DNA of 64,000 bases from an uncultured Thermococci archaeon (GCA_964595645.1 CAZQQT010000004.1:128001-192000); one strand, 5' to 3'. Counted from the first letter of the stretch, positions 16,120 through 40,301 are shown. The notes: generated by a model from the letters alone, not told the origin. Translations and numbers: made by a program.

Positions 16120-17370
16120 ATGAACATCTCAATTATTGGCACAGGTTACGTTGGGCTCGTGACAGGAGCCTGCCTCGCCAGCCTTGGCCATACCGTGACC
16201 TGCGTGGATATCGTACAGGAAAAAGTAGATCGTATCAATAACAAACAGCCACCTATTTATGAAGGGGGGCTGGAAGAGATATTACAGGAGACGGTGGGAA
16301 CAAGGCTGTCAGCCACCACAGACCTCAAAAAAGCGGTACTTAACTCTGACATCACATTCATCTGTGTGGGGACGCCCTCAAAGGAAGATGGATCCATCGA
16401 TTTGATGTATATAAAAAAAGCCGCAAGGCAAATAGGCACGGCCCTCAAAGAGAAAGAGGAGTACCATCTGGTGGTAGTAAAATCCACCGTTATTCCTGGA
16501 ACAACAGAAAAAATAAAAGAAATTATAGAAAAATCCTCAGGAAACCAACACTTCGGCATCTGTATGAACCCCGAGTTTCTTAGGGAGGGAAAAGCAGTCC
16601 ACGATTTTATGCATCCCGATCGGATTGTAATCGGTGTCGACGAGAAAAAAAGCGGCGATATGCTCGACAAATTGTACAAAAATTTTTCATGCCCAATCCT
16701 CCGCGTTGATATACGAACGGCAGAGATGATAAAGTACACGTCCAACGCGTTTCTCGCAACGAAAATCTCCTTTATCAATGAGATCGGGAATATCTGTAAG
16801 AAATTAGGCATCGACGTGTACGATGTCGCCGAAGGGATGGGGTTAGACACACGGATCTCGCCGAAGTTCTTACGGGCGGGCTGTGGGTTTGGCGGCTCGT
16901 GTTTTCCCAAGGACGTGAAGGCACTGATTGCCAAAGCGATGGAGCTGACCTACGATCCCACGCTCCTCGAAAGTGTGATGAAGGTAAACGAGCGGCAGCC
17001 GCTACAAATGATTGAGCTGCTGAAAAATAAGCTAGGAGATGTAGAAAACAAAAATATCGGCGTACTGGGGCTTGCCTTTAAGCCCGAGAGCGACGATATT
17101 AGAGAGTCCCGTGCGATCCCGATCATTCAGGGGCTAATAGAAGAAAACGCGAATGTCTACGCGTACGATCCAAAAGCAATGGGACACATGAAGGAACGCT
17201 TCCCAGAAGTAAGGTATGAAGACAATGCTCAGTCCGTGATAGACAAAACTGAGGCCGTGTTACTAGTCACAGCATGGCAGGAGTTTAAAAATCTCAACTA
17301 TAACAATAAACTGGTGATCGACGGTAGAAAGATTCTCGAAGGAAACAACTACGAGGGGATATGTTGGTGA
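16120..17370 (+). CDS. ugd: UDP-glucose 6-dehydrogenase (AglM-like)
   Basis: GTGYVG, NPEFLREG and GFGGSCFPKD motifs. Confidence 0.92.
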   Translation: MNISIIGTGYVGLVTGACLASLGHTVTCVDIVQEKVDRINNKQPPIYEGGLEEILQETVGTRLSATTDLKKAVLNSDITFICVGTPSKEDGSIDLMYIKKAARQIGTALKEKEEYHLVVVKSTVIPGTTEKIKEIIEKSSGNQHFGICMNPEFLREGKAVHDFMHPDRIVIGVDEKKSGDMLDKLYKNFSCPILRVDIRTAEMIKYTSNAFLATKISFINEIGNICKKLGIDVYDVAEGMGLDTRISPKFLRAGCGFGGSCFPKDVKALIAKAMELTYDPTLLESVMKVNERQPLQMIELLKNKLGDVENKNIGVLGLAFKPESDDIRESRAIPIIQGLIEENANVYAYDPKAMGHMKERFPEVRYEDNAQSVIDKTEAVLLVTAWQEFKNLNYNNKLVIDGRKILEGNNYEGICW

Positions 17371-19134: not shown

Positions 19135-20408
19135 ATGGTATTAAAAATGAAAAAGGAAATAGAAAGAGGCGAAGCTACAGTGTGCATAGTTGGGCTGGGC
19201 TATGTCGGGTTACCCCTCGCGGAGGCATTCTCCAATCACATAAGAACTATAGGAATAGATATAGATAAGAATAAGCTAAAAACTATAGAAAAAAATAATA
19301 AAAATTTAATCTGTACCTCGGATCCTTCACTGATAAAACAAGCAGATTTTATAATTATCACGGTACCAACACCAATAACGCAATCGAAAGAACCGGATTT
19401 ATCCTATGTAAAATCTGCAGCAACGACGGTAGGAAAAAATCTCAAAAAAGGTGCAACGGTGGTATTGGAATCGACCGTGTACCCTGGTGTAACTGAAGAA
19501 ATCGTTGTTCCTATTTTGGAGTGTGAATCGGGACTTGTATGTGGAAAGGACTTTAAAGTCGGATATTCTCCCGAAAGAATTAACCCTGGCGATGAAGATC
19601 ATACCTTAGACAAAATTACAAAAATCGTAGCAGGGATCGATGAAGACACAACGGAAACGCTAGCTGAACTATATGGGCTGATTACCGATGTCTATAAAGC
19701 TAAGGACATTAAAACAGCGGAAGCGGCAAAGGTGATGAGAATATCCAACGAGAATTGAATATTGCGTTGATGAATGAGTTCTCTCTCATATTCGACAAAA
19801 TGGGCTTAGATACAGATGCCGTGTTGGATGCTGCAGCGACAAAATGGAATTTTCATTGATATAGCCCTGGACTTGTAGGAGGGCATTGTATCCCTGTAGA
19901 TCCGTATTATCTAGTATATAAAGCGAAGGAAATTGATCACCGTCCCCAGCAGCTGATCCTCGCGGGTCGTTCCATCAACGATAACATACCCAACCACGTG
20001 GCGGACATGACTATCAAGGATCTGAACGAAACGGGTAAAGTGATCAAGGATTCTAAGGTCATCGTGATGGATCTTACCTATAAAGAGAATGTAGCTGATA
20101 CGAGGAAGTCTCCAGCTAAGGATCTGATAAAAGAGCTGAAGGCCTTCGATATCGATGTTTACGGCTACGATCCTCTACTGAGTGGGGAGGAAATCAAAAC
20201 CTTTGATGTGAAACCCTTGAGCAACATCAATAATCTAGATTTTGATGTGGACAGCTTTGTTTTCACTGTTTCACACAATGAGTTCAAAGATATATCAATA
20301 AATAACTTGAAAGCTTTGACTAATACTAACCTGTTGCTCATCGATGTACGAGGAATATTTTCGAAAGATGAGTCTGAAAAAAATGGGTTCATCTATAGAA
20401 CACTGTAG
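19135..20408 (+). pseudogene. UDP-N-acetylhexosamine dehydrogenase (WbpA/WbpO-like), frameshift plus stop
   Basis: GLGYVGLPLA and YSPERINPG; frameshift near 19735 into [14 protein letters not shown]; TGA at 19857-19859 before YSPGLVGGHCIPVDPYY. Confidence 0.85.
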
Positions 20409-20696: not shown

Positions 20697-22142
20697 GTGA
20701 CTCTTAAGCAAACCGTTAAGGACATAGGCATAATCGGAATCTCAAAGATGCTACTTTCAGTAGCAGGGATAATTTTAATCCCTTTTTTGACCAAGATCCT
20801 GGGCGAACACGATTATGGTTTGTGGGTACAGGTAAGTGCAACAATAGGCATTTTAAACCCCATCATCAGAATGGGGTTGCCCTATGCCACTGTGCGCATA
20901 TTCCCTTCAAAAGATGATATCAAAGAGATCGGTAAGGATTTCTCTGCGATAACTTTCCTTGTTCTAACCACTTCTATCTTCGCTTCCACATTGATATTTT
21001 TATTCCCTTCAATACTGGCAAATACAATATTTGAAGGACGTATTATAATCGTACAAATCCTAGCCGTATTTTTGTTCGTCCGTTCTATGGATGAACTGTT
21101 CATAACTGTATTTAGAGCTTTTAGAGAGATGAGAACCTATGCCATTTTGGAAGTGACCACCAGATATTCCGAAATAGCTCTTGCAGTGTCTTTGGTTATA
21201 ATGGGTTACGGCCTGATCGGAGCAGTACTCGCATTGGTATTTGTGAGAGGTTTATTGTTTATTGTTCTCACGATTTTAGTATCAAGAAAGTTAAAATTTA
21301 CAAGACCTAAATTCTCCAGAACGAAGGAATATCTAAACTTTGGAATACCTCTAATACCTTCCGATCTTTCAGTATGGTTGGTTAGCACTAGTGATAGACT
21401 TCTGATAGGTTTCTTTTTGGGTGCTACCTTTGTTGGTTATTATACTCCTGGCTACATGTTAGGGATGGCAATACCTGCAATGTTCACTGGAGTTCTCGTT
21501 TTTGTTTTAACGCCTGCCTTTTCAGAATATTACGAAAATAATGATTTGTCAACTATCTATGTGATAACAAGCTATTCGGTGAAGTTCTTTTTGATTATCT
21601 CTTCTCTTTATTTTATAGGTGTACTACTCTTCGGAAGACGTATTCTTGAAATATTTGCAACCCCTGCAATTGCAGAAAACGGTTACATCATAATTATTTT
21701 TACATCTATTACGGGTTTCTTTATGGGTATTTACACGCTTTTTTCAAGATATATAATATTAAAAAATCGAACAAAATTAATAGCGAGTTTTTGGATGATC
21801 GCAAGTTTCGTGAATATTTCAGGAAATATTTTGTTAATCCCACGCATCGGTATAATCGGTGCTGCAATTACAACCGTTATATCCTACTTCATACTGGTTA
21901 CATTAGCTTTAAACTTTGCATTGAAAAACTTTGATATCACAATAAAACTAGATTATATTCCAAAATTGGTTGTTTCTTCTTTTCTTACCTCGATATTCAT
22001 CTTTTTTTTAATCAATTATCTAACAATAACACCCATATACATCGACATCGTTTTGGGTTCGGGTTTTTATCTATTATCCGTTTTGATTTTTAAAATATTA
22101 AAAAAAGAAGAAATTACTTTCGTTAAGAGTATAATAGGATAA
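20697..22142 (+). CDS. Wzx-like oligosaccharide flippase (MOP family)
   Basis: About 14 TMs; LTKILGEHDYG, DRLLIGFFLG..VGYY and LLIPRIGIIGAAITT motifs. Confidence 0.9.
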   Translation: MTLKQTVKDIGIIGISKMLLSVAGIILIPFLTKILGEHDYGLWVQVSATIGILNPIIRMGLPYATVRIFPSKDDIKEIGKDFSAITFLVLTTSIFASTLIFLFPSILANTIFEGRIIIVQILAVFLFVRSMDELFITVFRAFREMRTYAILEVTTRYSEIALAVSLVIMGYGLIGAVLALVFVRGLLFIVLTILVSRKLKFTRPKFSRTKEYLNFGIPLIPSDLSVWLVSTSDRLLIGFFLGATFVGYYTPGYMLGMAIPAMFTGVLVFVLTPAFSEYYENNDLSTIYVITSYSVKFFLIISSLYFIGVLLFGRRILEIFATPAIAENGYIIIIFTSITGFFMGIYTLFSRYIILKNRTKLIASFWMIASFVNISGNILLIPRIGIIGAAITTVISYFILVTLALNFALKNFDITIKLDYIPKLVVSSFLTSIFIFFLINYLTITPIYIDIVLGSGFYLLSVLIFKILKKEEITFVKSIIG

Positions 22143-22171
22143 TGAGATAAATTCATATCATTTTTTGATAA

Positions 22172-23317
22172 TTAAGCAATCACGTTTTTAAAAATTAAAA
22201 CTATATCTGATTGGTTTAATACAATAGGATTGTTTTTCAAACGTTCCATATTTACTCTAGATACAAAATCATCTAATCGAATATTTTCACAAATATTCCC
22301 TAAATATGGTTCCAAACCTATCTCGTTCATCATTCGGCCGATGAAGTTTAATGCCTCTACAGGAGATGAACCATCCATCAACGAATATAACTCTGATATA
22401 ATCTCCTGATAATAATCCGTACCCCTTTTGTCTATCAGTTTATCAATATTTTCTCCATTATACTTCAAAAACTCCTTCATCATTATCGCAACTGCATGCC
22501 CATGTGGTATACCACATTTAGAGGTGATTACGTAGGAACATGCATGAGGGGCTGTAGTCTTTGAGATGTTAATAGCCTTTCCGGAAAGATTAGCTCCCTG
22601 TAACATGTTTTTTCTAGCTGCTAAATCATCTGGTTTTTCATACGCTCGGGATATGTTTTCGAGTATCAATTCAATAGCTTTTTTTGCATATTCTTTAGAT
22701 TCTTCTGTCGAGTTAACACTCCAATATGATTCAATGCCCTGGCATAAAGCATCCATGCCTGTACAAGCTGTTTGATACTTAGGTAAAGTTAACGTTAATT
22801 TAGGATCCAAGACCACATAATCCGGCAATATATATTCATGAGCAACCGAATATTTTTTCCCATCCATGTAAACCACAGCAAAATGCGTAGCCTCGCTACC
22901 CGTTCCAGCAGTGGTTGGAACAGCTAGAAAGGGTAACCCGTTGGACTCGATACTTTTTTCCTTCAAAACATATTTTTCTGGATTAGACTCTTGGAAAGAA
23001 AATATGTTGATCAACTTAGCAACATCAATGGCACTCCCTCCACCTACAGCCATAACTAAATCATTATCGTTTTTATTAAATTGTTCTACCCCATTTTTTA
23101 TCTCTTCAATTTTAGGATTCGAAGAATAATCTGTGAACTCGTCGAATTCAACATCCATCTCATCTTTGATTTTTTCTAACTCCTCTTTAGCTCCATTCAT
23201 CGAAAAGGATTTTTCACCATGAACTAGAAAAACTTTTTCAGCTTCTAAGTCATCCAAAACAACTCTAGTTTTTTCGATTGCTCCATCCTCAAAGAATTCT
23301 TTAACCATATCAATCAC
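22172..23317 (-). CDS. Phosphonoacetaldehyde reductase (group III iron-dependent alcohol dehydrogenase)
   Basis: GGGSAIDVAK, PTTAGTGSEATHFAV, DALCQGIESYWS, AINISKTTAPHA and HGHA motifs; in an operon with pepM and ppd. Confidence 0.85.
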   Translation of the reverse strand: MIDMVKEFFEDGAIEKTRVVLDDLEAEKVFLVHGEKSFSMNGAKEELEKIKDEMDVEFDEFTDYSSNPKIEEIKNGVEQFNKNDNDLVMAVGGGSAIDVAKLINIFSFQESNPEKYVLKEKSIESNGLPFLAVPTTAGTGSEATHFAVVYMDGKKYSVAHEYILPDYVVLDPKLTLTLPKYQTACTGMDALCQGIESYWSVNSTEESKEYAKKAIELILENISRAYEKPDDLAARKNMLQGANLSGKAINISKTTAPHACSYVITSKCGIPHGHAVAIMMKEFLKYNGENIDKLIDKRGTDYYQEIISELYSLMDGSSPVEALNFIGRMMNEIGLEPYLGNICENIRLDDFVSRVNMERLKNNPIVLNQSDIVLIFKNVIA

Positions 23318-24020
23318 CTAAAAAACTTTTAGCCTTTTTCAAATCAGGTTCAGTATCTATCTCCATGCAGAAAAGATCAGAAAAATCAACACTTTGTATC
23401 TTTAATTTTTCTTTTTTCAATAAGGGATTCAAAGCGTTTTCAGCGTACACCCCTTTTTTTCCATCTTCTACAAAACTTTCCATGGACCCCATCCATCTTT
23501 TAAAATCTTCATTTTTCAAAAAATAAAATGGCATAAAACCTACTTTTCCATCTATATCTACACCTATCTCTTTTACAAATCCATCTTCTATACAAGCATT
23601 GAAATCTTTTTTTAATGATTCGTCATGATTCACGAGTCCACGGCTATACTTATCATCATATAACAGTAAATCTAAAATCCTTTTTTCGAATACTAAATCG
23701 CCGTGTAGTAACAAAATATCTTCAGGCCCGATCAATTCCTTTGCCAGATAGAGAGAATAGATATAATTTGTAGATTTGTATTCTAGATTGTGTACGTATT
23801 CGATTTTTAACTCGTTATAAACTTCTTCAACATGTTCTTTTAGTTTATCTTCAAAGGGTCCTGTTGTTATGACAATCTCCTTGATACCTTTCTCCGAAAG
23901 CAATCTTAGCTGCCTAGACAATATAGTTTCATCATTTAATTCCACCATGCATTTAGGCTTGTCATCGGTATAGTGCCCCATCCTCTTACCTTCACCTGAA
24001 TTAAGGATTATAGCCTTCAT
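23310..24020 (-). CDS. LicC/PntC-like cytidylyltransferase
   Basis: AIILNSGEGKRM...PKCM, NYIYSL, LLHGDL and EIDTEPDL motifs. Confidence 0.85.
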   Translation of the reverse strand: MKAIILNSGEGKRMGHYTDDKPKCMVELNDETILSRQLRLLSEKGIKEIVITTGPFEDKLKEHVEEVYNELKIEYVHNLEYKSTNYIYSLYLAKELIGPEDILLLHGDLVFEKRILDLLLYDDKYSRGLVNHDESLKKDFNACIEDGFVKEIGVDIDGKVGFMPFYFLKNEDFKRWMGSMESFVEDGKKGVYAENALNPLLKKEKLKIQSVDFSDLFCMEIDTEPDLKKAKSFLGD

Positions 24021-24029
24021 GGTCTCACT

Positions 24030-25166
24030 TTAATCCTGCAAAAAATCCATGAACATCTCTTTTCTTTCTATCGGTCCGATATCTGGCCTACCTAAATCTT
24101 TTCTAGCACCTTTTTTAACTCTAACTTCAAGAAGAGCTGGTCCTTTTGTTTTCAACAACTCCTTAATTTTCTCATCTACTTCCGATGGAGTGTTAGCTTT
24201 CATTACTTTGTTATATCCCGCTCCTTCAGCAATCTTTTGGAAATCTACAACTGGAGCAGCTGTAGGCTGACCACCTACAGAATCGTGGGCACAGTTATTT
24301 AGTATTACATGTTTAAGATTGACTGCATCATTCAAGCTTATTGTAGATAAAACTCCCATGTGCATGATCAAAGAACCGTCACCTTCAATGCATATAACCT
24401 GTTTATCTTCATTTCTTAAAGCTATCCCTAAAGCTATCTGTGAGGCGTGTCCCATCGAACCGACCATCAAAAAATCTTTCTCATGTCCTTGGTTCAATCT
24501 TCCACGTACTTCGTAAAGCTCCCTAGATATCTTACCTGTGGAAGAAACCACAAGATTTTCTCCAGTCTTCCATTCAATATTTTTTATAATCTTCTCGATC
24601 GCTTCTTCCCTAGTAATATCACAACTGATATTTTCATCCTGTTCTAAAGTATATTCTAAGAAAGTTCCTCTCTTAACAACTAATGCTCGAGGTTTTTTAT
24701 CGTCTTTCATATCCTTAACAATCTCTTCGACCAAAGCTTTAGCTTCTGATATCTTTTCAGGCAAAACAAAGTTGGGTATATCCATAGTATCCAACAGATC
24801 TCTAGTGACTTTCCCTTGTTTGATGTGCTGACAGGTATCTTTCTTACCTGGTTCACCTCTCCATCCTATCATCAAAAGAACAGGTATATTGTACACTTCT
24901 TCATCTACCAAAGACAACAGCGGATTAGTAGCATTTCCCATACCAGAATTTTGCATGTAGACCAGTGGAATTTTTCCTGTGGACAAGTAATACCCCGACG
25001 CTACACCAATTGCATTACCTTCATTCGCAGCGATAATATGATTTCCTTTAGATACGTTATCTGTGACATAGGCACAAAAACACTTCAGTAATGAATCAGG
25101 AACTCCAGTAAAAAACTCTACATCATTATCAATCAATGTAGAGAAAAATTCTCCAGGATCTAACAT
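24030..25166 (-). CDS. ppd: Phosphonopyruvate decarboxylase
   Basis: FFTGVPDSLLK, ANEGNA, YMQNSGMGN, STGKISREL, GSMGH, EGDGS...NN and HDSVGGQPT motifs. Confidence 0.93.
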   Translation of the reverse strand: MLDPGEFFSTLIDNDVEFFTGVPDSLLKCFCAYVTDNVSKGNHIIAANEGNAIGVASGYYLSTGKIPLVYMQNSGMGNATNPLLSLVDEEVYNIPVLLMIGWRGEPGKKDTCQHIKQGKVTRDLLDTMDIPNFVLPEKISEAKALVEEIVKDMKDDKKPRALVVKRGTFLEYTLEQDENISCDITREEAIEKIIKNIEWKTGENLVVSSTGKISRELYEVRGRLNQGHEKDFLMVGSMGHASQIALGIALRNEDKQVICIEGDGSLIMHMGVLSTISLNDAVNLKHVILNNCAHDSVGGQPTAAPVVDFQKIAEGAGYNKVMKANTPSEVDEKIKELLKTKGPALLEVRVKKGARKDLGRPDIGPIERKEMFMDFLQD

Positions 25167-26468
25167 CTATTTCCCTCCAGGTATAAGAGTTAAGATGTCT
25201 CTTATACCCATACAGTACTTTTCGTCTGCTTCCTTAGCTCGATTGTGCTCCAAGATACTTTCAGCAGCTTTCTTCATAGCTGGATATGCACTACGCAGGA
25301 GATGATTGGCATAAATAACCACATTTGCTCCGGCTTCTATCAACTCTTCTTCGGTTATTTGACAATACGTGGTTGGAACCACGACAACTGGAACCTTATA
25401 CTCAAAATCTTCATACTCGTCAAAGAACGCTAAGATATCATCTGGATCATCGTCTTTGCTGTGGATCATTACAGCATCTACACCAGCATCTATGTAAGCC
25501 TCAGCCCGCTCCAAGGCATCATCTAATCCAGCATCAAGTATCAAGCTTTCTATACGAGCTATTATCATGAAATCATCAGTGACCTGTGCTTTTTTACCTT
25601 CTGATATTTTCCTCGTAAAGTTTTCTATAGTATCCTGTTTTTGCTCCACTTCTGTACCGAATAAGGAATTTCTCTTCAATCCTATCTTATCCTCTATTAT
25701 CACGGCAGAAACGCCTATTCTCTCTAGGGTTTTAACTGTGTAAACAAAATGTTCGACTTTACCGCCTGTATCCCCATCCAATATTATCGTTTTGGTCGTA
25801 ACCTCCAAGATCTCATTAATCGTATTGATCCGTGAAGTTTCATCGACTAACTCAATGTCAGGTTTTCCTTTCACTGTAGAATCACATAAACTACTTACCC
25901 ACATCCCATCGAAGCTTTCTATTTTATCCTCTTTAGGGAATTTTGTTTTCTCGGCTATCAACCCAGTTAATCCGTTATGAGCTTCTATGATGCGAACGAT
26001 GTCTTTTTTTTCTATAAGCTTTCTAAGCTTCTTCCTTCTTTCATCTGGCGTTGTTCCCAATTCTTCAATCTTTTCATCCAATTTATCTAGCGAAACATCT
26101 TTCGTATATTCAACTTCGACTAGTTCTCCTCCCCATTCCTCTAAAGTTTCTATAACTTTTTCCCTAATTTTTTGTTGAGGTCCAGTCTTCCAATCTTCTC
26201 CATGGACTACATAATCCGGCTTTAGCTCTTTCAATGTAGGGGTATAATCAAGTTCTTCTTGCCTAACTACGTTTTCAACGCCTTTGATATTTTCTATCAC
26301 TTTTTTGCGTTGATCGTACTCTAATAGAGGATAACGCTTATAGCTAGCCATTACTTCATCCGTCAAGATTCCTACTGTTACTTCCCCTAACTCCCTAGCC
26401 TTTTCTATCACGTTTATGTGGCCATGATGTATTATATCCGTTCCTATCGTAAGATAGACTTTTTTCAT
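25167..26468 (-). CDS. pepM: Phosphoenolpyruvate mutase with N-terminal cytidylyltransferase domain
   Basis: PepM signature EDKIGLKRNS (EDKx5NS); DGDTGG; N-terminal DIIHHGH (HxGH)...VVHGEDW. Confidence 0.96.
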   Translation of the reverse strand: MKKVYLTIGTDIIHHGHINVIEKARELGEVTVGILTDEVMASYKRYPLLEYDQRKKVIENIKGVENVVRQEELDYTPTLKELKPDYVVHGEDWKTGPQQKIREKVIETLEEWGGELVEVEYTKDVSLDKLDEKIEELGTTPDERRKKLRKLIEKKDIVRIIEAHNGLTGLIAEKTKFPKEDKIESFDGMWVSSLCDSTVKGKPDIELVDETSRINTINEILEVTTKTIILDGDTGGKVEHFVYTVKTLERIGVSAVIIEDKIGLKRNSLFGTEVEQKQDTIENFTRKISEGKKAQVTDDFMIIARIESLILDAGLDDALERAEAYIDAGVDAVMIHSKDDDPDDILAFFDEYEDFEYKVPVVVVPTTYCQITEEELIEAGANVVIYANHLLRSAYPAMKKAAESILEHNRAKEADEKYCMGIRDILTLIPGGK

Positions 26469-26504
26469 TTTTTACCTCCTTTTATTTAATTAGACTATTA
26501 CTCT

Positions 26505-27197
26505 CTAATCAATTATTGATTCATCATCTTTATAATAAATATAATCTTTTTTAGGTGTTTTCCAGTCTTTACCATATCTATATTCGAGATATTCTTCCAC
26601 AGGACTAGGAATATTGAATTTTATACCGTAAAATTGTATTGTAGATAACTCATTAAAATATTTTGCAGGTATTGAGATGAAAATTTTAGATGACAACATA
26701 TCATGGATTTTATTTAGACTTTTAATCATTTTCCTTCTGATTTCCGGAGAAAATTTGGAAAAAAAGTGTCCCATAGCGTTAGTTAGAAAAAAGGGATATC
26801 TTATTTTAATAAATTTAGCACTTCTTTTATCTTCAACTAAATGTCTAATATAATTAATCATTGGTCCAACATAATAATCATTTACTTTCCAAAAGGTAGT
26901 TGCAGTATCATCTTTTTTATCATACAATGTTATATCGATTCTAATATCTTCATAATAAATATGTATGTGTTTTGAATAAATAACTAAATAATCACTAGGA
27001 AGTTGGTGGAGAGCCTTTTTTACTTCATTATAATTGTCACTCCAACTTCCTAAGTCAATATCATTATCCCCTTCTATTATCTTTCCATCTCTAACTGCAC
27101 CAAGTAATGTTCCAGAATCCAACCAGAAACATATATCTTCCTTATCCAAAAGCGTTCCAATTCTTTTCAAGATTTTTGAAGCTTTTTTTCCTTCCAT
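26505..27197 (-). CDS. licD: LicD family phosphotransferase
   Basis: FWLDSGTLLGAVRDGKIIEGDNDIDLG; YLEYRYGKDWKTP. Confidence 0.85.
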   Translation of the reverse strand: MEGKKASKILKRIGTLLDKEDICFWLDSGTLLGAVRDGKIIEGDNDIDLGSWSDNYNEVKKALHQLPSDYLVIYSKHIHIYYEDIRIDITLYDKKDDTATTFWKVNDYYVGPMINYIRHLVEDKRSAKFIKIRYPFFLTNAMGHFFSKFSPEIRRKMIKSLNKIHDMLSSKIFISIPAKYFNELSTIQFYGIKFNIPSPVEEYLEYRYGKDWKTPKKDYIYYKDDESIID

Positions 27198-27227
27198 TCT
27201 GAATCACGTTATATAGAGGATTTATTA

Positions 27228-29006
27228 TTACGAATTCATTTTTTCAATTTTATAGGTGTAATAAAATTCATTGTCGTATACCCTATTTACTGAAGAATCA
27301 TTATTTAATTTATTATATGTTGTTTCATTAAAAAACCAGTCTTCTTCATAATCCGTAAATACTTCATAAAATAATATGCGCGTTACATCAGTATGAGTGA
27401 TATATCCAGAAAAGTTTTCTCCTACCGTCTCATGTTCCTTATATCCAAAATGTTGTGGCATTTCTTTTTCTTGTTGGCTTTGAATTCTATCCGGAACAGA
27501 ATACCTTCCATAAATAAGATGTCCCATCCTTTCTCTATCTGTCCCAAAACTCCAAATTGATTCATTCCCTTTGCTGTTTTCTAAAAACCATTCTGATCCG
27601 ACTACTTCTTGCAAAGAAACTTGATTATTAGCCTCTTTGGATATAGAGGAAGGATGTACACTAAAAACAGAAATCACTATAATAATAAAAATTAAAATAG
27701 TCAATATTATTGTTTTGGTCAATCTATTTTGAAAACTAAAGTTTATTATTATTGTGCTGATAAATATAGAAAAAAATGTAAACCATTTAAAAAGCCTATA
27801 AAAATGTACAAAATCAACAAAAAAATTCATTCCGGACCAAACTACAAAAGTTAGAAAAGATAAAATAAAAAATCCGGACAGATTTTTATTAAAAAAAACG
27901 AAGATAGTACTTTTTCTCTGTTTGACAAGTGTAAATAAGATAATCAATAACGAAAAAAATAACAGAATCATTTCCAAACCAAATCTAAACATTATTATTT
28001 GTATAGCATCTATAACTTTTACATCATACACATTCAAAGCCGCAGTATAGTATACTAAAGCAGGATTAATTGCTTCTTCAATAAATAATGAATATAAAGC
28101 TTTTCTAAATCCATGTTGTATTGTAGGAAATAAAAAATACCAATTAAACCAGAGTGAAAATAAAGCTAATACACCTTTATTTGGCAAATTTCTAAATTGG
28201 TGTTCGTCACTATATTTCAAAAAACTGCTGTGATAAATATAAAGATCGAAAATGATAAGAATTATAAAAATATAAAATGAGGATATTGGATGAGAAAAAA
28301 TCAAACCAACCATCATTATAAAAAAACAAATTAATGTATTCTTTTTCTTTTTTTCTCTGTAAATTTTGATTATTAAATATATAAGTAGAGGAAGAAATAA
28401 AAAAACCATGTTGTTTGGTTTAATATTCAAATGTACCGCCCCAAAAATCAAGAGTATTCCTAGTAAGATAGGATACTTTCTGTTTATATCATTAAAACCG
28501 TGTTTAAAAAGTATATATATCGAAGATGAAAAAAATATGTAAAAAACAATTGAAAAGAATTGAAATATTATAGTTACAGGCATCTTTGTTATCAATGCAA
28601 AATTTGTGGCAAAGACATGTAATCCGGGGTAGTAATTTTGATCGTGGACGAACCCCCTGCCCATTAGATCCTTAATACATCCTATATGAGTTATTATATC
28701 TCCTCTACTGTAAATAAAGTAACCTCTAAAAATCGGTAAGGATATAATTAAAATATTAATATATAAAATTACTCCAACCCCATACAAAAGATATTTCTTA
28801 TCATCTGAATGAATAACTACTAATGAACCAAAAATAAGAGAAATTACTATTAATAACCAAAAGTAATTTGGAAACGCGGAATATATTGATGGTTCATATG
28901 ATTCTACTTGGGGTGTAATAATAAGTATAATATCAATTAGTATTGAAGATATCAGTGCTAACAAAAGAATGAACCGGATGTGAATAGCTTTTAAATTAAT
29001 ACCCAT
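27228..29006 (-). CDS. Polytopic membrane protein, GT-C-like, typical of archaeal glycan loci
   Basis: About 13 TMs; RGDIITHIG...NYYPGLH; HP; C-terminal NRVYDN. Confidence 0.6.
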   Translation of the reverse strand: MGINLKAIHIRFILLLALISSILIDIILIITPQVESYEPSIYSAFPNYFWLLIVISLIFGSLVVIHSDDKKYLLYGVGVILYINILIISLPIFRGYFIYSRGDIITHIGCIKDLMGRGFVHDQNYYPGLHVFATNFALITKMPVTIIFQFFSIVFYIFFSSSIYILFKHGFNDINRKYPILLGILLIFGAVHLNIKPNNMVFLFLPLLIYLIIKIYREKKKKNTLICFFIMMVGLIFSHPISSFYIFIILIIFDLYIYHSSFLKYSDEHQFRNLPNKGVLALFSLWFNWYFLFPTIQHGFRKALYSLFIEEAINPALVYYTAALNVYDVKVIDAIQIIMFRFGLEMILLFFSLLIILFTLVKQRKSTIFVFFNKNLSGFFILSFLTFVVWSGMNFFVDFVHFYRLFKWFTFFSIFISTIIINFSFQNRLTKTIILTILIFIIIVISVFSVHPSSISKEANNQVSLQEVVGSEWFLENSKGNESIWSFGTDRERMGHLIYGRYSVPDRIQSQQEKEMPQHFGYKEHETVGENFSGYITHTDVTRILFYEVFTDYEEDWFFNETTYNKLNNDSSVNRVYDNEFYYTYKIEKMNS

Positions 29007-29064
29007 ATATACTCCTCAATTTACCAACTTTTTATAACCTTGAAGTTTTATTTTTAAAACTAAT

Positions 29065-29982
29065 TTATCTAATAAAATCAAACAATTTCTTAAATCGTTC
29101 TTTTCTATAATATTCAATCACATCCGGATCATTAATTCTTTCTTCTTGATTTATAAATGCTTGGAGATACCCAGAAATATGCCCAATACCATATACAGGT
29201 TTAGAAAACATACAAAAGAATATTCTAGCTAATAACATGAGAGGATGATAATATTGAATGTAGGCCCTGTATCCATGAAATTTCCCCATCTCATACATAT
29301 TTTCAAGTGTAGTATTAGTTTCACGAACCAAACACCCCCAAACATCTTCGATGTGAGCAACTTCATAACCATTCATTATAGCTTTAGCATGGATTATATC
29401 CGATGATGCATCCGTGATAGGAAAGCCGCCGATTTCATTAAGAAACGATTTCCTATAAATTCTGATTTCATCAAACGGTTCATCAACTCTATTTTCGCTG
29501 CTGTAAATTACTAAATTTTTATCATTTAGAATTCTTTGAGGTTGCTTTAGGGCTGAAACATCTATACTCTTTTTCAAAGTCATTAAATTTGGACTAGCTA
29601 TAGCTAAATCTGGTCGTTTCTCCATTTCGTTAATTATTCTTTCAAATGTTTCATCATGGAACCTAGCATCCGCATCAGCTTTGGCTAGATATTTAACCCT
29701 ATTAGAAATTTTTAAGGACTTATCAAATCCTGTGCTTAAAACTTTAGCAAAATGTTTTCCGAATGTCCTCTCTGATTTTTCTGACATCCTAAACGAATGT
29801 ATCCAGCCGTATTCAACACATAATTTTTTTAATAGTTCAGGCGTACTGTCAGTACTACCGTCGTCTATTATTACCCATGCTTGAGGTTTTTGCGATTGAT
29901 CTATAACACATTTTGCTAAGTCATTAATGTTTTCTTCTTCATTTTTTACTGGAGAGATTAAATTATAATCTGGGTTGACCAT
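29065..29982 (-). CDS. Glycosyltransferase family 2
   Basis: ISPVKNEE, IIDDGSTD and DAD motifs. Confidence 0.88.
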   Translation of the reverse strand: MVNPDYNLISPVKNEEENINDLAKCVIDQSQKPQAWVIIDDGSTDSTPELLKKLCVEYGWIHSFRMSEKSERTFGKHFAKVLSTGFDKSLKISNRVKYLAKADADARFHDETFERIINEMEKRPDLAIASPNLMTLKKSIDVSALKQPQRILNDKNLVIYSSENRVDEPFDEIRIYRKSFLNEIGGFPITDASSDIIHAKAIMNGYEVAHIEDVWGCLVRETNTTLENMYEMGKFHGYRAYIQYYHPLMLLARIFFCMFSKPVYGIGHISGYLQAFINQEERINDPDVIEYYRKERFKKLFDFIR

Positions 29983-30064: not shown

Positions 30065-31057
30065 TTATTCTCCAATACTGTCTGTTACAGATTCAAAATT
30101 TTGAACATCATACATAACCATTCCAATATCCTCTTCTTCCAATAAATCAACAGTATGAAGAGATTGTTCTTCATTGACCTCTAAAACCGAACTCAATATT
30201 TTGGCATTAAACCCTAATTCTTCTGCAAAGTTATGTATAGCTTTTACATCTTTTGGGAAGCAACTACCTCCAAAGCCGGCTCCTGCATTCAAAAAATCTC
30301 TGTTGATTCGATGATCTAGGCCTACTCCATCCATCACGTCTATACATCGATTCCGACTTTTTCGCAAATTCTTGATAACTCATTCGCAAATGATATTTTA
30401 GTGGCTAGCAAGGCATTCGAGGCATACTTTATCATCTCTGCAGTCCTTATATCGGTCTTAACCACAGGCGCATCGAAATTTTCATAAGCTTTAGAAACCT
30501 TATTGACCGTTTTTTCATCCCTTCCTCCTATCACTATCCTATCGAGATTTAAGAAGTCATCCAATGCAATGCTACCCCTTCCCGTAAAAATTCAGGATTC
30601 ATACCGAGGCCCAAATCTTCTGCAATCTCTTTCCCGCTCTCTTCTAAAATGGTAGGACTTTTGTGTCAGTGGTAGTTGGAACTACGGTACTCTTAACACA
30701 AATTACATGATAATCATCTTTTTCTGATAAAGCCTTAGAAATATTTTCCGCAGTCTTTTCTACATCACTGGTATCGATACTACCATCTTGTTTAGAAGGA
30801 GTTCCCACACAGATAAAAGTAACATCGGTTTGTTTTATCGCATCTACAGTATCCGTCGTAGCTATCATTTTATCTTCATTAACTACTTCTTTCAATAATT
30901 TGTCTAGCCCCTCTTCGTATATAGGCGGAACTCCCTGATTGATTTTGTCGACTTTTTCTTCATCTATATCTACACAGGTTACTTCATGACCCTTGGATGC
31001 AAATCCAGTTCCTGAAACTAATCCTACGTAACCTGTACCTATTATGCTTATTTTCAT
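30065..31057 (-). pseudogene. ugd: Second UDP-glucose dehydrogenase, multiply frameshifted and truncated
   Basis: Three ORF fragments: GTGYVG; DRIVIG...AEMIKYASNA; GFGGSCFPKD. Confidence 0.88.
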
Positions 31058-31071
31058 CCAAAATCACCGTT

Positions 31072-31998
31072 CTAGTCTTTTCTGAAGTATTCTATCGTCT
31101 TCTTTAAACCTTTTTCTAATCCTATCTTCGGCTCCCAATCCAACTTTTCTTTGGCTTTAGTGATATCTGGTTTCCTTCTCTCTGGGTCGTCTTTTGGCTG
31201 TTCCTCATAAGTCAGATCACTATCAGTATCGATCAACTCTATTGTCTTCTCGGCAAGCTCTAAAATGCTGATTTCATGGGGATTACCTAGATTTACAGGA
31301 GTGTTTACATCTGCCTTCATCAACATCCAAATCCCCTCGATCAAATCATCAATATAACAGAAACTCCTAGTTTGACTGCCATCTCCATGGACTGTAAGAT
31401 CTTCGTCATTCAGTGCTTGAGTGATAAAGGTGGGAATCACTCTCCCATCATCGGCTCTCATCCTGGTCCCATAGGTATTAAATATTCTAGCCAACCTAAT
31501 ATCTATATCATGTTTGCGATGGTAAGCCATACATATCGCTTCTCCATAGCGTTTTGATTCATCATAACATGATCTGAAACCTATCGGATTTACATTACCC
31601 CAATAATCTTCTGTCTGAGGATGTACTTCAGGATTGCCGTAAACCTCGCTTGTAGACGTGAAAAGATACTTCGCATCTTTAGCTTTAGCTAATCCCAAAG
31701 TTTTGTGAGTTCCCAATGCGCCGGATTTCAATGTTTTTATTGGATATTCCTTGTAGAATATGGGTGAAGCTAAACTTGCCAGATGTAAAACCCAATCAAC
31801 GTCTCCCCCTACATGAATGAAATCAGTAACATCATGTTCATAGAACTGGAAATTTTTGTGGTAAAAGAAATCGTTTAAATTTTCATCTCTTCCGCTCACT
31901 AAATTGTCTAAACAAACAACTTCGTGGCCTTTATTCAATAAATACTCACATAAATGACTTCCAATAAAACCAGCTCCTCCGGTTATTACTATCCTCAT
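31072..31998 (-). CDS. UDP-glucuronate decarboxylase (UDP-xylose synthase-like)
   Basis: [34 protein letters not shown] and DDGRV motifs. Confidence 0.9.
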
Positions 31999-32859
31999 CT
32001 AATCACCTCTAAAATAATTATCTTTTATCCATTCTTTCAATTCTTCTCCCAATTCTTCTTTGATTGCCAAATCTATCGTTGTTTTGATATAGTCTTTTTT
32101 ATTTCCAATATCATATCTTGTACCTTCATAGTAATATGCGTACTGCTCATCGATTAATCTTAAGGCATCGGTAAGCTGCACGTCTCCTCCTTTCCCAGGA
32201 CCAACTTCTTCTAGAGCATCAAAAATATTAGGGGTTAATAGATATCTACCTAAAATAGCTAAATTAGAAGGGGCTTCATCAACTGGCGGTTTTTCTATTA
32301 AATCATCGATCTGGTAAACATTATCTTCTCCTTTTTCTCCTGAAATAACTCCATATAAGTTTACCTTATCTTCAGGAACTTTCTCAACCGCTGTTATAGA
32401 TTTTTCATATTTCTGATATAGGTCTATTAACTCTTTAGTACAGTTGGGTCTAGTAATCGTATCCCCGAGGAGAAGCACAAAGGGATTATCTCCTACATGT
32501 TTTTTAGCATATCTAATAGAATCACCTAGTCCTTTAGGTTCCTTTTGTCGGACATAGTGTATGTCAGCCATGTTAGAAATCTCTCTTACCCTTTCTAGCA
32601 TCTTTTCTTTGCCACTCTTTTTGAGATGATTCTCAAGTTCATAGAAAGTATCAAAGTAATCTTCGATTGAGCGTTTGTGTTTGCCCGTGATTATCAATAT
32701 ATCGTCTAGTCCTGCGGATAATGCTTCGTTTACGACATAGTGCATGACGGGTCTATCAACGACCGGCAACATCTCTTTTGGTTGACTTTTAGTTGCAGGA
32801 AGCAACCGAGTACCCATTCCAGCAGCTGGGATCACAGCTTTAGTTATTTTTCTTTTCAT
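31999..32859 (-). CDS. galU: UTP--glucose-1-phosphate uridylyltransferase
   Basis: KAVIPAAGMGTRLLPATKSQPKEMLP; VRQKEPKGLG; VQLTDAL. Confidence 0.93.
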   Translation of the reverse strand: MKRKITKAVIPAAGMGTRLLPATKSQPKEMLPVVDRPVMHYVVNEALSAGLDDILIITGKHKRSIEDYFDTFYELENHLKKSGKEKMLERVREISNMADIHYVRQKEPKGLGDSIRYAKKHVGDNPFVLLLGDTITRPNCTKELIDLYQKYEKSITAVEKVPEDKVNLYGVISGEKGEDNVYQIDDLIEKPPVDEAPSNLAILGRYLLTPNIFDALEEVGPGKGGDVQLTDALRLIDEQYAYYYEGTRYDIGNKKDYIKTTIDLAIKEELGEELKEWIKDNYFRGD

Positions 32860-32890
32860 CTAATCTCACCTCACTATAAAATACAGTTTT

Positions 32891-33376
32891 TCATTCTATA
32901 TTTTTAATATAATCATTCAATTTTGAAATTAATTTATTTTTTGTATTAAAACTTCTAATTTTTTTATAATCTTTATTTAGAACATTTTCTAGATTTTCTA
33001 TATTATATACAACCACTCCAATATTTTCTTTTTCTAATTTTTTACTTATTTCTAATTGGTGATTATCATAGTGTTCATTGTATTTTTTTTGTCTAGGAAC
33101 AATTATCATTGGCTTATCATAACTGTAAGCTGTAATGATTGTCCCTATACCAGCGTGACCTATGATAAGTCTCGATTTTTTATATAAATCATTAATTTTT
33201 GCATTTGAAGTATATCTAAAAAATCGTGTATGATTTGGTTTATATTTGGTATCTCCTATTTGCATAATTATCTTTTCATCTAAATTGGGTTTAATTTCAT
33301 CTACTTTTTTAATTAATCTACTGAAATCATGAGAACTTCCACCAACAGTTACAAAAATCAAATTACCTTCCCCCAA
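32891..33376 (-). CDS. Alg13/PssE-like glycosyltransferase subunit
   Basis: IFVTVG, IIGHAGIGTI and EHYDNHQLE motifs. Confidence 0.88.
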   Translation of the reverse strand: MGEGNLIFVTVGGSSHDFSRLIKKVDEIKPNLDEKIIMQIGDTKYKPNHTRFFRYTSNAKINDLYKKSRLIIGHAGIGTIITAYSYDKPMIIVPRQKKYNEHYDNHQLEISKKLEKENIGVVVYNIENLENVLNKDYKKIRSFNTKNKLISKLNDYIKNIE

Positions 33377-33849
33377 TATTTAGCTTTTTCATATTTTCTT
33401 GATAAAGAATCCCACTGGACTAAGAATAAATCACTTATAGGATAGATTAATTTAGCACCAGGAGATATTCCTTTAACCCGAGTTAAAGATTCTAAATAAA
33501 TAACTTTTTTACCAAATAATTTTCCGATGTATGATAGACTAATACTTGCAGGACCTCCACTACAAAAAATCACGTCAGGTCTTTCTTTATATACTATATA
33601 CAAGCTCATAATAAAGCTATAAATTTGATATAAAACTAATAATATGAGATAAAGGTATTTAGACTCCAGGGAGGTAAATACTTCAGAGAAATGTTTTTTT
33701 AAATAATATACCTCATTTTCATTTTTAAGTTCTGATGAAACTTCGGAAAATGCCGTCACAAAAAAAGTCTCTTCATCTTTAAAAGCATCTATAATTTGGT
33801 TTGTTTCATCAAGGTGTCCACCTGGACCTACAGAAATACAAATTTTCAT
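33358..33849 (-). CDS. Alg14/PssD-like glycosyltransferase subunit
   Basis: GGHL, ERPDVIFCSG, YLES..R and FLVQW motifs. Confidence 0.88.
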   Translation of the reverse strand: MKICISVGPGGHLDETNQIIDAFKDEETFFVTAFSEVSSELKNENEVYYLKKHFSEVFTSLESKYLYLILLVLYQIYSFIMSLYIVYKERPDVIFCSGGPASISLSYIGKLFGKKVIYLESLTRVKGISPGAKLIYPISDLFLVQWDSLSRKYEKAKYWGKVI

Positions 33850-34134: not shown

Positions 34135-35011
34135 TCACTTAAAGTTATTTTTTATGGTTATTTTAAGAAATTTTCTTTTTTTTGAAGCAATTATACTAAG
34201 TTTATCTCCTAAACCTGTTAAATTCCCAATAAAATTTTCACACCGATAAGAGATGAACAGTAATCTATTGCCGATAAAAGAAAGGTAATCATTAGTAGGG
34301 GTTTGAATATCTTTAATTTTTAGGTTAGCCCTAGGAAAAAGTTTTTTACAAGAATTTTTGGTAAAATACCAATAATGTTCATGAGGGGAGTATGCATACC
34401 ATTTTTTTCCTAAAATTTTCCTAATCGGATTCGAGAAACGGGGAACCTCTATACCTATTATCCCATCTTTTTTCATTAGAGTCCTTCCTATTTTTAGAAA
34501 TTTAGGAAAGTTTTTCACATGTTCTAAGAAAGCCTTCATTACTACGACATCAAAATTATGACCTAAATTTTTTTTATCTAGTTTTTCTACATCTCTTACA
34601 AATAAATTATTTTTAAGTTCTAATTCATTTTTCCCATACTTTATTTTTGTCTCATTAAGATCGACTCCCATGGCATAATCCTCTATCTCTAGCCATCTTA
34701 ACAATCCATCCGTAGCCACAACCTAAATCAATTAATTTTCCTCCCTTTTTATATTTATATATTTGTTTCATTTTTTCTTTAGCATAGATTTTAAATTTTT
34801 TTGGATTTAGAGAGGAAGGATTATTATTTGATCTCTCCAAATTTTTTATTTCTTCCTGCTTTAAACTAAATAGAGTTTGGTTTTTTCTTAATCCACAGCT
34901 AGGACATTTTTCGATTACTAATTGCTTATTATTTATTTTTTTAAAAGGCCCTATTTTCATATCAAATTTAAATTTCATATTACAGATTGGACATTTTTTA
35001 AATCTTATCAT
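34135..35011 (-). pseudogene. Class I SAM methyltransferase with N-terminal Zn ribbon, frameshifted near 34680
   Basis: CPIC...CPSCG, LIDLGCGYG in one frame; AMGVD...FLEHV...EVP...EHYWYF in the next. Confidence 0.8.
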
Positions 35012-39517: not shown

Positions 39518-40301
39518 TTAAAGATATTTTCTGATCTCTTCGCTCACAACTTCATCAAACACAAAATCAAATTCAGGTCCTTCATCCATCTGATGTTTAA
39601 GAGAGTTCTCCCAGCTGTTTTGATAATCTTCCTTTCTTTGGATAAACGCTTCTAGGTCTATCTCTACACCTTTGAATTCGCTTTTTTTCCTTCAACACTT
39701 CCCTCACAATCTCTCTATCAATTTTTTCATGCATCTTCCAAACATCATATAGATCTCTAGGCCTGGTCCTTTCAAATAAGGATCTAATTTTTTCTGCTAT
39801 TATTTCTTCAAGTGGATAACATCTTACCTTTTTATCGAAGTTATCAGGGCAGTTATGGAGGATTCTCCTTGATTCAGGACTAAGAACAATCTTTTCCTTA
39901 TCAGGACGTGTCAGATCAATTTTGATCTTTAAAGGACTTCCAGTACTTCTCAAAATCCTGAAATAAACTTCGATTTTAAATCCGTTTTTAACTTCTTCTA
40001 ATTTCAAATCTTCTTCAAAACGAATCCCATATTCTCTTACGGTCCTTTCAATAGCTTCTTTAATCAACGCCTCTAAACTCTCTTCTCTAAATTCTTTTAC
40101 CATGGTAAAATCAAGGTCATCAGAAAATCTGTAATCATCAAAATATACCTTTTTTATACCAGTTCCGCCTTTCAGGAGCATATCATCGTTAGCGAAGTTC
40201 TTGAGAAACCAGCTCTGGGCATAGTCTCTTTCGATAGTACTAGCGGGCACCCCATTTTTCCTCGCTCTCTTTTTGATCTCACCGTCCCGGATCATCTTCA
40301 A
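39518..40301 (-). pseudogene. abiEii: AbiEii toxin with a frameshift at an A-tract near 39685
   Basis: ERDY, KGGT, RFSDDLDF and RDLYD motifs; C-terminus EFKGVEID...WENSLKHQM continues in another frame to TAA at 39518. Confidence 0.8.

Follow-up and report, generated by a model that had tools for sequence, protein, structure and literature searches.

A predicted 2-hydroxyethylphosphonate-type phosphonyl-tailoring cassette in the surface-glycan island of an uncultured Thermococci archaeon

The stretch of DNA described here is a 64,000-nt window from an uncultured Thermococci archaeon, whose genome comprises 1.97 Mb on 14 contigs and is 99.96% complete; coordinates given without a locus name are positions in this window. 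The map of open reading frames (ORFs), combined with Pfam and NCBIfam scans, places seven minus-strand genes between 29982 and 22172. In order of transcription, they encode a family-2 glycosyltransferase (GT2), a polytopic membrane protein, a LicD-family phosphotransferase, a fusion of a cytidylyltransferase (CyTase) domain to phosphoenolpyruvate (PEP) mutase (CT-PepM), phosphonopyruvate decarboxylase (Ppd), a nucleotidyltransferase and an iron-containing alcohol dehydrogenase (Fe-ADH). The last five are called the cassette below. A flippase gene, located on the plus strand, is convergent with the Fe-ADH end of the cassette. The locus can with reasonable probability be read as a Pnt-type (phosphonyl-tailoring) cassette that follows the branch to 2-hydroxyethylphosphonate (HEP), carried by a non-methanogenic archaeon within an accessory island of surface-glycan genes. 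The features are as follows (TM, transmembrane).

20697-22142, plus strand: MOP/Wzx-type polysaccharide flippase (PF01943, 90 bits; PF13440 also matched; about 11 TM segments predicted)
22172-23317, minus strand: Fe-ADH, predicted phosphonoacetaldehyde reductase, PhpC/FomC-like (PF00465, 142 bits; PF25137)
23310-24020, minus strand: PntC/LicC-like (MobA/LicC-like) nucleotidyltransferase, 236 aa (PF12804/PF00483)
24030-25166, minus strand: Ppd, phosphonopyruvate decarboxylase, 378 aa (TIGR03297, 479 bits against a cut-off of 312.5)
25167-26468, minus strand: fusion of CTP_transf_like (PF01467) and PEP_mutase, Fom1-type, 433 aa (TIGR02320, 398 bits against a cut-off of 319.55)
26505-27197, minus strand: LicD-family phosphotransferase, 230 aa (PF04991, 48.8 bits against a cut-off of 22.6)
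27228-29006, minus strand: polytopic membrane protein, 592 aa, about 12-14 TM segments (weak DUF6541 match, PF20176, 32 bits)
29065-29982, minus strand: GT2, family-2 glycosyltransferase (PF00535, 50 bits)
31072-33849, minus strand: NAD-dependent epimerase/dehydratase (PF16363/PF01370), GalU (TIGR01099) and an Alg13-like/Alg14-like pair (PF04101, PF08660)
35076-36641, minus strand: alkaline-phosphatase-superfamily protein, type I phosphodiesterase/nucleotide pyrophosphatase (PF01663, 127 bits)

An original prediction made on this DNA had described a tightly coupled run of licD, pepM, ppd, cytidylyltransferase and Fe-ADH genes accompanied by a flippase and glycosyltransferases. Every gene that it named is present where it was placed, and the profile scans confirm the identities of LicD, the CT-PepM fusion, Ppd, the cytidylyltransferase and Fe-ADH. 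The coupling is equally real: the genes share one strand, with spacings of -8 to +58 nt. The nucleotidyltransferase and Fe-ADH genes overlap by 8 nt, ppd follows pepM with 0 nt between them, and the remaining gaps measure 9-58 nt. The five cassette genes are full-length relative to their homologues and keep their catalytic motifs. Synteny comparison, which had been proposed as a check, recovers the same five-gene order in locus L002, a contig of a Thermoplasmata metagenome-assembled genome (MAG), and in L031, a contig whose name begins SL_8KL_010_SED and which by that name comes from soda-lake sediment; LicD lies directly upstream of pepM in all three. Because the order LicD, CT-PepM, Ppd, nucleotidyltransferase, Fe-ADH recurs in L002 and L031, the arrangement is not due to chance, and since the L002 genome falls outside the class of the host, the cassette is shared by two archaeal classes. 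Amino-acid identity between the window and L002 reaches 87% for PepM and 79% for Ppd, 68% for Fe-ADH, 64% for the nucleotidyltransferase and 46% for LicD. Nonsynonymous divergence (dN) between the two is 0.08-0.44 while synonymous divergence (dS) is saturated, and a dN far below dS is consistent with purifying selection.

The fusion protein is the sole PepM of the genome (399 bits in the whole-genome search) and passes the equivalog cut-off of TIGR02320. Its motif EDKIGLKRNS is a form of the Ppm-specific EDKxxxxxNS, whose named residues (E, D, K, N, S) do not vary among 118 homologues. Alignment to the PepM of Mytilus (1m1b) reveals conservation of the Asp in PDI, the Asp pair in DGD, the Arg in ARIE and the His in IHSK, which we take to be catalytic or Mg-binding active-site residues of the Mytilus enzyme. 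The PepM domain is predicted to form the carbon-phosphorus (C-P) bond by converting PEP to phosphonopyruvate. Ppd, whose match to TIGR03297 spans model positions 2-360 of 360 and which contains both thiamine pyrophosphate domains (PF02776 and PF02775), is predicted to turn phosphonopyruvate into phosphonoacetaldehyde. The Fe-ADH protein carries the GGGS and PTTAGTGSE motifs, and its metal-site ligands align within a group III Fe-ADH fold. Homologues at 44-52% identity, including one from Halanaerobium hydrogeniformans and several from DPANN and Asgard MAGs (among them Aenigmarchaeota and Hodarchaeales), bear the NCBI label "phosphonoacetaldehyde reductase". At 31-69% identity, homologues adjoin CT-PepM and Ppd in about 40 other loci (among them L005, L006, L008, L010 and about 30 metagenome loci). 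Fe-ADH is predicted to serve as the phosphonoacetaldehyde reductase that gives HEP.

Two cytidylyltransferases are encoded in the cassette. The first, the N-terminal domain of the PepM fusion (residues 4-136), matches the Fom1 CyTase sequence (PDB 5x3d) at E 1.6e-45, compared with about 1e-9 for glycerol-3-phosphate cytidylyltransferases of the TagD type. Its HxGH motif is present as HHGH and is invariant or nearly so across the 118 homologues. The Fom1 CyTase domain produces cytidine monophosphate-linked HEP (CMP-HEP), according to the account of Cho et al. 2017 given in PMC6697681. The fused domain is predicted to be an HEP cytidylyltransferase and specifically a Fom1-like one; a Fom1-type fused domain is also found in two clusters, L003 and L004, of the 2-aminoethylphosphonate (AEP) type.

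The second is the free nucleotidyltransferase. When a profile of six members, namely this protein and five relatives, is compared with the PDB, the PntC domain of Treponema denticola Tde1415 (6pd1) comes first at 162.8 bits (E 1e-46), followed by LicC (1jyk) at 121.2 bits (E 5e-34), with the remaining structures at 70 bits or less. By this measure, PntC is a closer relative of the enzyme than either LicC or the sugar-1-phosphate nucleotidyltransferases are. In Tde-PntC, Glu104 and Glu196 touch the amine of AEP (Rice et al. 2019, PMC6697681). The equivalent of Glu196 is kept in the window enzyme as E194, and the position of Glu104 is occupied by His106, followed by Gly107 (LLLHGDL against LLLESDL of Tde-PntC). 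Because of His106, the enzyme is classed from its sequence as PntC-like and not as an AEP-specific PntC.

The genes that accompany the two forms differ. Neighbours were counted in 80 fetched metagenome loci of the PntC-like family and in genome-contig loci other than the window; these are counts of loci among which relatives share labels, rather than a statistical test, and Fe-ADH was scored within the fetched flank. Fe-ADH lies near the His-Gly form in 35 of 47 loci, PepM, Ppd and Fe-ADH occur together in 30, and an AEP transaminase in 1; most of the other loci are short contigs. The PepM-linked loci with the Glu-Ser form all have an AEP transaminase (3/3) and none has Fe-ADH (0/3); 36 further Glu-Ser loci contain no PepM at all. 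Gene order is variable among the His-Gly loci, so the association between the His-Gly form and Fe-ADH has survived rearrangements. Reading frames of about 670 aa in which a His-Gly domain is fused to CT-PepM are found in at least three bacterial loci (L035 7998-10013, L043 8001-10013 and L063 2032-4041). By Pfam, L043 encodes a triple fusion of NTP_transf_3 (His-Gly, N-terminal), CTP_transf_like and PEP_mutase, set in a glycan locus and followed by Ppd and Fe-ADH. This triple-fusion architecture accounts for 2.8% of Ppm proteins and PF01467-PepM fusions for 23.6% (Rice et al., PMC6697681), and clusters with two nucleotidyltransferases have already been recorded (Rice et al. 2019, PMC6697681).

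Since the His-Gly domain is fused to CT-PepM elsewhere and travels with Fe-ADH, both cytidylyltransferases can be regarded as parts of an HEP-type module, and the free enzyme is probably a second cytidylyltransferase whose substrate is HEP or an HEP derivative. HEP-type modules that have no PntC-like gene also exist (L005, L006, L008 and L010). No description of a His-Gly PntC subfamily was found in a literature search of incomplete coverage. One can go further and picture the His-Gly enzymes as a distinct family specific for HEP or an HEP derivative, acting with the Fom1-type domain in a two-step cytidylyl relay that would yield the first phosphonate-esterified envelope glycan outside Nitrososphaeria. 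For example, one enzyme would make CMP-HEP for LicD, and the other would activate a second unit for attachment at the free hydroxyl of HEP, giving a teichoic-acid-like repeat that contains phosphonate; bacterial parts would in this way have been assembled on an archaeal lipid-linked glycan pathway. We regard this elaboration as doubtful. Independently of it, the His-Gly pair at the amine-contacting position would improve the automated prediction of HEP-type versus AEP-type clusters.

That the head group is HEP rather than AEP also depends on what the genome lacks. No AEP transaminase scores above cut-off genome-wide. The best match is a class-V aminotransferase on contig C6, at 192 bits against cut-offs of 361 and, for the other model, 401, and similar sub-cut-off aminotransferase matches occur in all 14 control genomes. 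A transaminase encoded elsewhere in the genome was rejected as a candidate, given that only such sub-threshold class-V aminotransferases are present. Among the island ORFs of at least 80 aa, all of which are accounted for, there is no aminotransferase or cupin, and no MpnS/HEPD-like ORF was found in the island. The earlier claim that neither an AEP transaminase nor an MpnS-like dioxygenase is visible stands, at the scale of the genome for the former and of the island for the latter.

It is highly improbable that AEP, produced by the unlinked aminotransferase of contig C6, forms the head group while Fe-ADH serves some other role. AEP is the commonest branch of phosphonate metabolism, with 56% of ppm neighbourhoods, compared with 8.5% for the HEP branch, from which the isolated products are methylphosphonate (Nitrosopumilus) and an HEP-exopolysaccharide (Stackebrandtia) (PMC8942020). 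In addition, PntC and an AEP transaminase accompany the PepM of the nearest named bacterial relative (Natroniella, L003) and of Nanoarchaeota L004. Against this, the aminotransferase is far below its cut-offs and equalled in the control genomes, the Fe-ADH and PntC-like genes share 8 nt, and the PntC-like enzyme, which has no Glu at the amine-contacting Glu104 position, is of the subfamily found with Fe-ADH and not with the AEP transaminase. HEP is the head group that these observations favour.

Transfer of the activated head group would fall to LicD. The protein contains the motif GTLLGAVRDG...DNDID, of the GxLLGxxR...DxD type, shows a weak match to the LicD-like domain of FKRP (6kaj), and has no predicted TM segment. 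According to the profile search it is the single LicD of the genome. A phosphocholine supply for LicD was considered and rejected, the genome being without a choline kinase. As there is a single LicD and no choline kinase, no local genes other than those of the cassette would supply a small head group activated by cytidylylation, and LicD is predicted to use CMP-HEP to place the HEP-phosphonyl group on a sugar hydroxyl. Because LicD is soluble, transfer would take place on the cytoplasmic face, ahead of flipping, by analogy with the pneumococcal Lic system.

The nature of the acceptor is suggested by the genes around the cassette. For the polytopic membrane protein at 27228-29006, whose TM segments are predicted from hydropathy, the nearest Atlas clusters are archaeal and one of them is named RgtA/B/C/D-like glycosyltransferase, which makes it a GT-C-like candidate for a glycan-processing or polymerising component. 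GalU scores 356 bits with TIGR01099, above the cut-off of 327. The flippase, the GT-C-like protein, GT2, GalU, the epimerase/dehydratase and the Alg13/14-like pair together point to a lipid-linked oligosaccharide bound for the envelope.

About 10 kb upstream of the cassette, at 36662-38098 on the minus strand, lies a gene for a B12-binding radical S-adenosylmethionine (SAM) protein, which overlaps an upstream GT2 gene by 4 nt (the pair spans 36662-39102, minus strand). It matches HpnJ (TIGR03471) over its full length with 369 bits, below the cut-off of 578, and scores 106 bits with the PhpK P-methyltransferase family and 72-93 bits with the KedN5 C-methyltransferase family and the C-methyltransferase family of ribosomally synthesised and post-translationally modified peptides (TIGR03975). 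A Fom3-like reading of this gene was rejected: the protein is HpnJ-like over its full length, and the gene is not kept beside the cassette in L002 or L031. For the same two reasons, a fosfomycin-like or 2-hydroxypropylphosphonate route is unlikely. HpnJ is the ring-contraction enzyme of the hopanoid cyclitol ether; HpnI/HpnJ-type pairs build cyclitol head groups, and archaeal calditol synthase represents a related idea. The GT2 and HpnJ-like pair could be a sugar ring-contraction system within the same island. Another B12-binding radical-SAM gene is found in Nanoarchaeota L004 (6299-7816), about 0.65 kb upstream of a CT-PepM, Ppd, PntC and AEP transaminase series, with one small ORF between. 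Its product is only 25% identical to the radical-SAM protein of the window and could be a phosphonate C- or P-methyltransferase.

These genes also bear on a very improbable division of the cassette into two systems, in which LicD and the LicC-like enzyme would form a phosphocholine-type (Lic) system and PepM, Ppd and Fe-ADH would make free HEP or a small-molecule phosphonate, for instance a fosfomycin-like one. LicC and LicD are indeed the classic phosphocholine pair, and the island holds members of four enzyme classes known from fosfomycin biosynthesis (Fom1-, Fom2- and FomC-like proteins and a B12 radical-SAM protein). The Lic half is countered by the missing choline kinase and by the fusion of the His-Gly PntC-like domain to CT-PepM in at least three bacterial loci, which ties this domain to phosphonate chemistry. 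The fosfomycin half is countered by the HpnJ-like character and lack of conservation of the radical-SAM gene described above, and no HppE/FomD-like genes are present.

The cassette appears to be of foreign origin. Genome GC content is 0.432 (standard deviation 0.031, 5-kb windows), and the region from about 22 to 42 kb of the window is the longest low-GC stretch of the genome, at 0.28-0.35; the cassette genes themselves have GC contents of 0.28-0.39. Of the 133 genomes of the host class, one has PepM and two have LicD. The only matches in a same-genus genome (G001), dispersed over several small contigs at 72-77% identity, do not delimit the island. A quick maximum-likelihood IQ-TREE of 77 CT-PepM proteins, with SH-aLRT support only, places the window in one group (SH-aLRT 99) with eight metagenome sequences and the Thermoplasmata MAG, which derives from soda-lake sediment of Kulunda. 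This group is nested in a clade of Halanaerobium hydrogeniformans, Natroniella and Halanaerobiales MAGs (SH-aLRT 99), itself among Clostridia, and the fusions of Nanoarchaeota, Woesearchaeota and Heimdallarchaeota branch elsewhere. PepM phylogeny, low-GC composition and patchy distribution agree, and horizontal acquisition, as the original prediction proposed, is well supported. Judged by the tree, Halanaerobiales-like Firmicutes, bacteria that favour salt and alkali, are the most probable source of the PepM/Ppd core; a point against this origin is that most close metagenomic relatives have no taxonomy, so that the direction of transfer rests on few named sequences. Because Natroniella L003 has CT-PepM and Ppd together with a PntC-AEP transaminase fusion, and Halanaerobium has a reductase homologue, the archaeal cassette may be a mosaic. 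In ecological terms, the distribution points to an envelope chemistry transferred from soda-lake Firmicutes into archaea of two classes.

The recipient is not a methanogen by its gene content, since no mcrA is found in its genome. Its GTDB class contains 133 species, of which one family has 97 genomes (seven sampled: about 2 Mb, no mcrA). Within its order, mcrA is present in two of four sampled families (16/17 and 7/7 genomes), and in its own family in 0 of 5. The host fits a non-methanogenic member of the class Thermococci, in a Methanofastidiosales-like order, and this make-up together with the mcrA pattern agrees with the earlier view of it as a non-thaumarchaeal archaeon. The same view had presented the archaeal case as if it stood nearly by itself, which no longer holds: related HEP-type or AEP-type cassettes occur in MAGs of Thermoplasmata, Nanoarchaeota and Woesearchaeota. 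In the literature search, whose coverage was incomplete, no paper was found on an HEP/LicD cassette in Thermococci-related or Thermoplasmata archaea.

Altogether, these findings lead to a model in which the PepM domain would convert PEP to phosphonopyruvate, and Ppd would decarboxylate this to phosphonoacetaldehyde, drawing the unfavourable PepM equilibrium forward. Fe-ADH would then reduce phosphonoacetaldehyde to HEP, which would react with cytidine triphosphate to give CMP-HEP. The best-precedented catalyst for this activation is the Fom1-type domain fused to PepM, and the separate His-Gly PntC-like enzyme would act on HEP or a related substrate. On the cytoplasmic face of the membrane, soluble LicD would take CMP-HEP as donor and attach its HEP-phosphonyl group to a hydroxyl on a lipid-linked oligosaccharide. 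The adjacent Wzx-type flippase would flip the decorated unit, whose destination would be an envelope glycan, either an N-glycan or an exopolysaccharide. We infer every chemical step from the genes, as we do the respective roles of the cytidylyltransferases, the identity of the acceptor and the expression of the cassette.

Several observations count against this model. In Fe-ADH, a Gln replaces one canonical His metal ligand, a change shared by 23 of 37 module-linked homologues and by PDB 6jko. The same protein reaches only 170 bits with TIGR03405, against a cut-off of 423.7; this model is the sole phosphonate-linked Fe-ADH equivalog in NCBIfam, and being named for PsrA it may not cover PhpC/FomC. 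The cassette contains two cytidylyltransferases without an explained need for both. The donor specificity of LicD is not readable from its sequence, and its best NCBIfam match is Mf1, a Mycoplasma diacylglycerol/glycolipid cholinephosphotransferase (E 2e-15), so that a lipid acceptor is possible. Finally, parts of the island are decaying, with fragments of UDP-glucose dehydrogenase and methyltransferase genes, and the acceptor glycan may be incomplete.

The Mf1 match is the starting point for a reading in which the pathway is the same as far as CMP-HEP and the group is then passed to a membrane lipid or glycolipid, not to a glycan chain, and would there form a phosphonolipid-like head group. 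The GT2 and HpnJ-like pair 10 kb upstream, which may modify a lipid-linked sugar head group, would suit such an acceptor. The match to Mf1 amounts to 57 bits against a cut-off of 225, the island contains no CDP-alcohol phosphatidyltransferase, and the neighbours (Wzx, GT-C-like protein, GT2, GalU, Alg13/14-like pair) are typical of lipid-linked oligosaccharide assembly, all of which argues against a lipid. Such an acceptor is unlikely, if worth keeping in mind.

The decay of the island is relevant to another reading, in which the cassette was recently acquired and is silent or decaying, so that phosphonate synthesis does not occur or assembly of the acceptor glycan has ceased. It draws on the foreign composition of the island, on the toxin-antitoxin genes at its border, and on the broken dehydrogenase and methyltransferase genes. 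These comprise two UDP-glucose/GDP-mannose dehydrogenase genes, each reduced to short ORFs with N-terminal, central or C-terminal domains (19135-20408, plus strand; 30065-31057, minus strand), and a class-I SAM methyltransferase gene (34135-35011, minus strand), in which a 118-aa ORF ending in LIDLGCGYG overlaps the start of a 194-aa ORF with the rest, probably a frameshifted pseudogene. What makes this reading quite improbable is that all five cassette genes are full-length with their catalytic motifs kept, and that their order is conserved in two other contigs with dN far below dS.

Other genes of the window complete the picture. An intact UDP-glucose/GDP-mannose dehydrogenase copy is located at 16120-17370, indicating selective decay within the glycan loci. 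The PF01663 protein encoded at 35076-36641 has no signal peptide and no PDB sequence match, and its nearest Atlas clusters are unnamed archaeal PF01663 proteins. Genes for PF01663 or PF00884 sulfatase proteins recur near PepM in archaeal and bacterial loci alike (L002 4220-5494, L003 16163-17617, L004 2404-3930 and 4349-5494, L043 6194-8035), and this recurrent alkaline-phosphatase-superfamily gene is a candidate CMP-phosphonate hydrolase or second phosphonyl transferase. The right border of the low-GC island is marked by an AbiEii/AbiEi type IV toxin-antitoxin pair (39597-41050, minus strand), beyond which lies a polysaccharide deacetylase/GT2 block of normal GC. Two paralogous proteins of secreted type, each combining a beta-propeller resembling those that bind pyrroloquinoline quinone with PEGA (485 and 492 aa), are encoded at 7554-9011 (minus strand) and 47979-49457 (plus strand) and flank the glycan/toxin-antitoxin region.

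Surface decoration is thought to be the main microbial use of C-P chemistry, and to our knowledge no step beyond CMP activation has yet been reconstituted. With five intact genes in about 5 kb and a CMP-phosphonate as the only plausible donor for a single LicD, the compact cassette offers a clean system for the missing transfer step. The comparative lead is the His-Gly PntC-like subfamily, which is tied to the reductase branch and also supplies the N-terminal part of triple-fusion PepM proteins of the kind described in PMC6697681. The methylphosphonate of Nitrosopumilus is the only archaeal phosphonate product that we found named in the literature (PMC8942020).

The early part of the proposed pathway resembles that of fosfomycin in Streptomyces (Fom1 CyTase-PepM, Fom2 Ppd and FomC Fe-ADH), with which it is predicted to share the first four reactions, to CMP-HEP. 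Unlike the Streptomyces pathway, the window has no Fom3-type methyltransferase, FomD or Fom4, and CMP-HEP is the predicted donor for LicD instead of a transient handle for methylation. The later part recalls the Lic pathway of Streptococcus pneumoniae, in which LicA, LicC, LicD1, LicD2 and the TacF flippase handle phosphocholine derived from imported choline. There, a cytidylyl-activated small head group is moved by a cytoplasmic LicD onto a lipid-linked glycan that is then flipped, and the same is predicted for the window; the pneumococcal head group is phosphocholine, whereas the archaeal genome has no choline kinase.

The closest overall scheme is that of the bacterial Pnt pathway (T. denticola Tde1415, Atopobium rimae and Olsenella uli; Rice et al. 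2019, PMC6697681), which likewise combines PepM and Ppd with LicC-like CMP activation and a LicD-like transferase in a surface-glycan locus. PMC6697681 also notes loci in which PepM carries a fused nucleotidyltransferase and another lies close by. Characterised PntCs differ in that AEP is the compound they activate and an AEP transaminase is their partner, either separate or fused, while the window has Fe-ADH, His-Gly in place of Glu-Ser, and an archaeal host. The HEP phosphonoglycans of Glycomyces and Stackebrandtia nassauensis, as far as PMC8942020 relates them, are similar in having HEP esterified to an exopolysaccharide and a PhpC-type Fe-ADH acting after Ppd; their hosts are actinobacterial, whereas the archaeal cassette is known from its genes alone. 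Among archaea, the methylphosphonate exopolysaccharide of Nitrosopumilus maritimus (Metcalf et al. 2012, in the summary of PMC8942020) also relies on a PepM, Ppd and Fe-ADH route to HEP that feeds a surface polymer. In that account it continues to methylphosphonate with MpnS, for which the island has no ORF, and both its host lineage and the Firmicutes-like origin of the present cassette set the two apart. The Borg elements of Methanoperedens (bioRxiv 10.1101/2024.11.05.622173) similarly encode a nucleotidyltransferase-fused PepM in an archaeal glycoconjugate region with predicted surface decoration. The Borg cluster is of AEP type, with a PntC-AEP transaminase fusion, and extrachromosomal, in contrast to the chromosomal, predicted HEP-type cassette with LicD described here. 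The overall scheme is already known from bacteria, and its novelty lies in the archaeal host.

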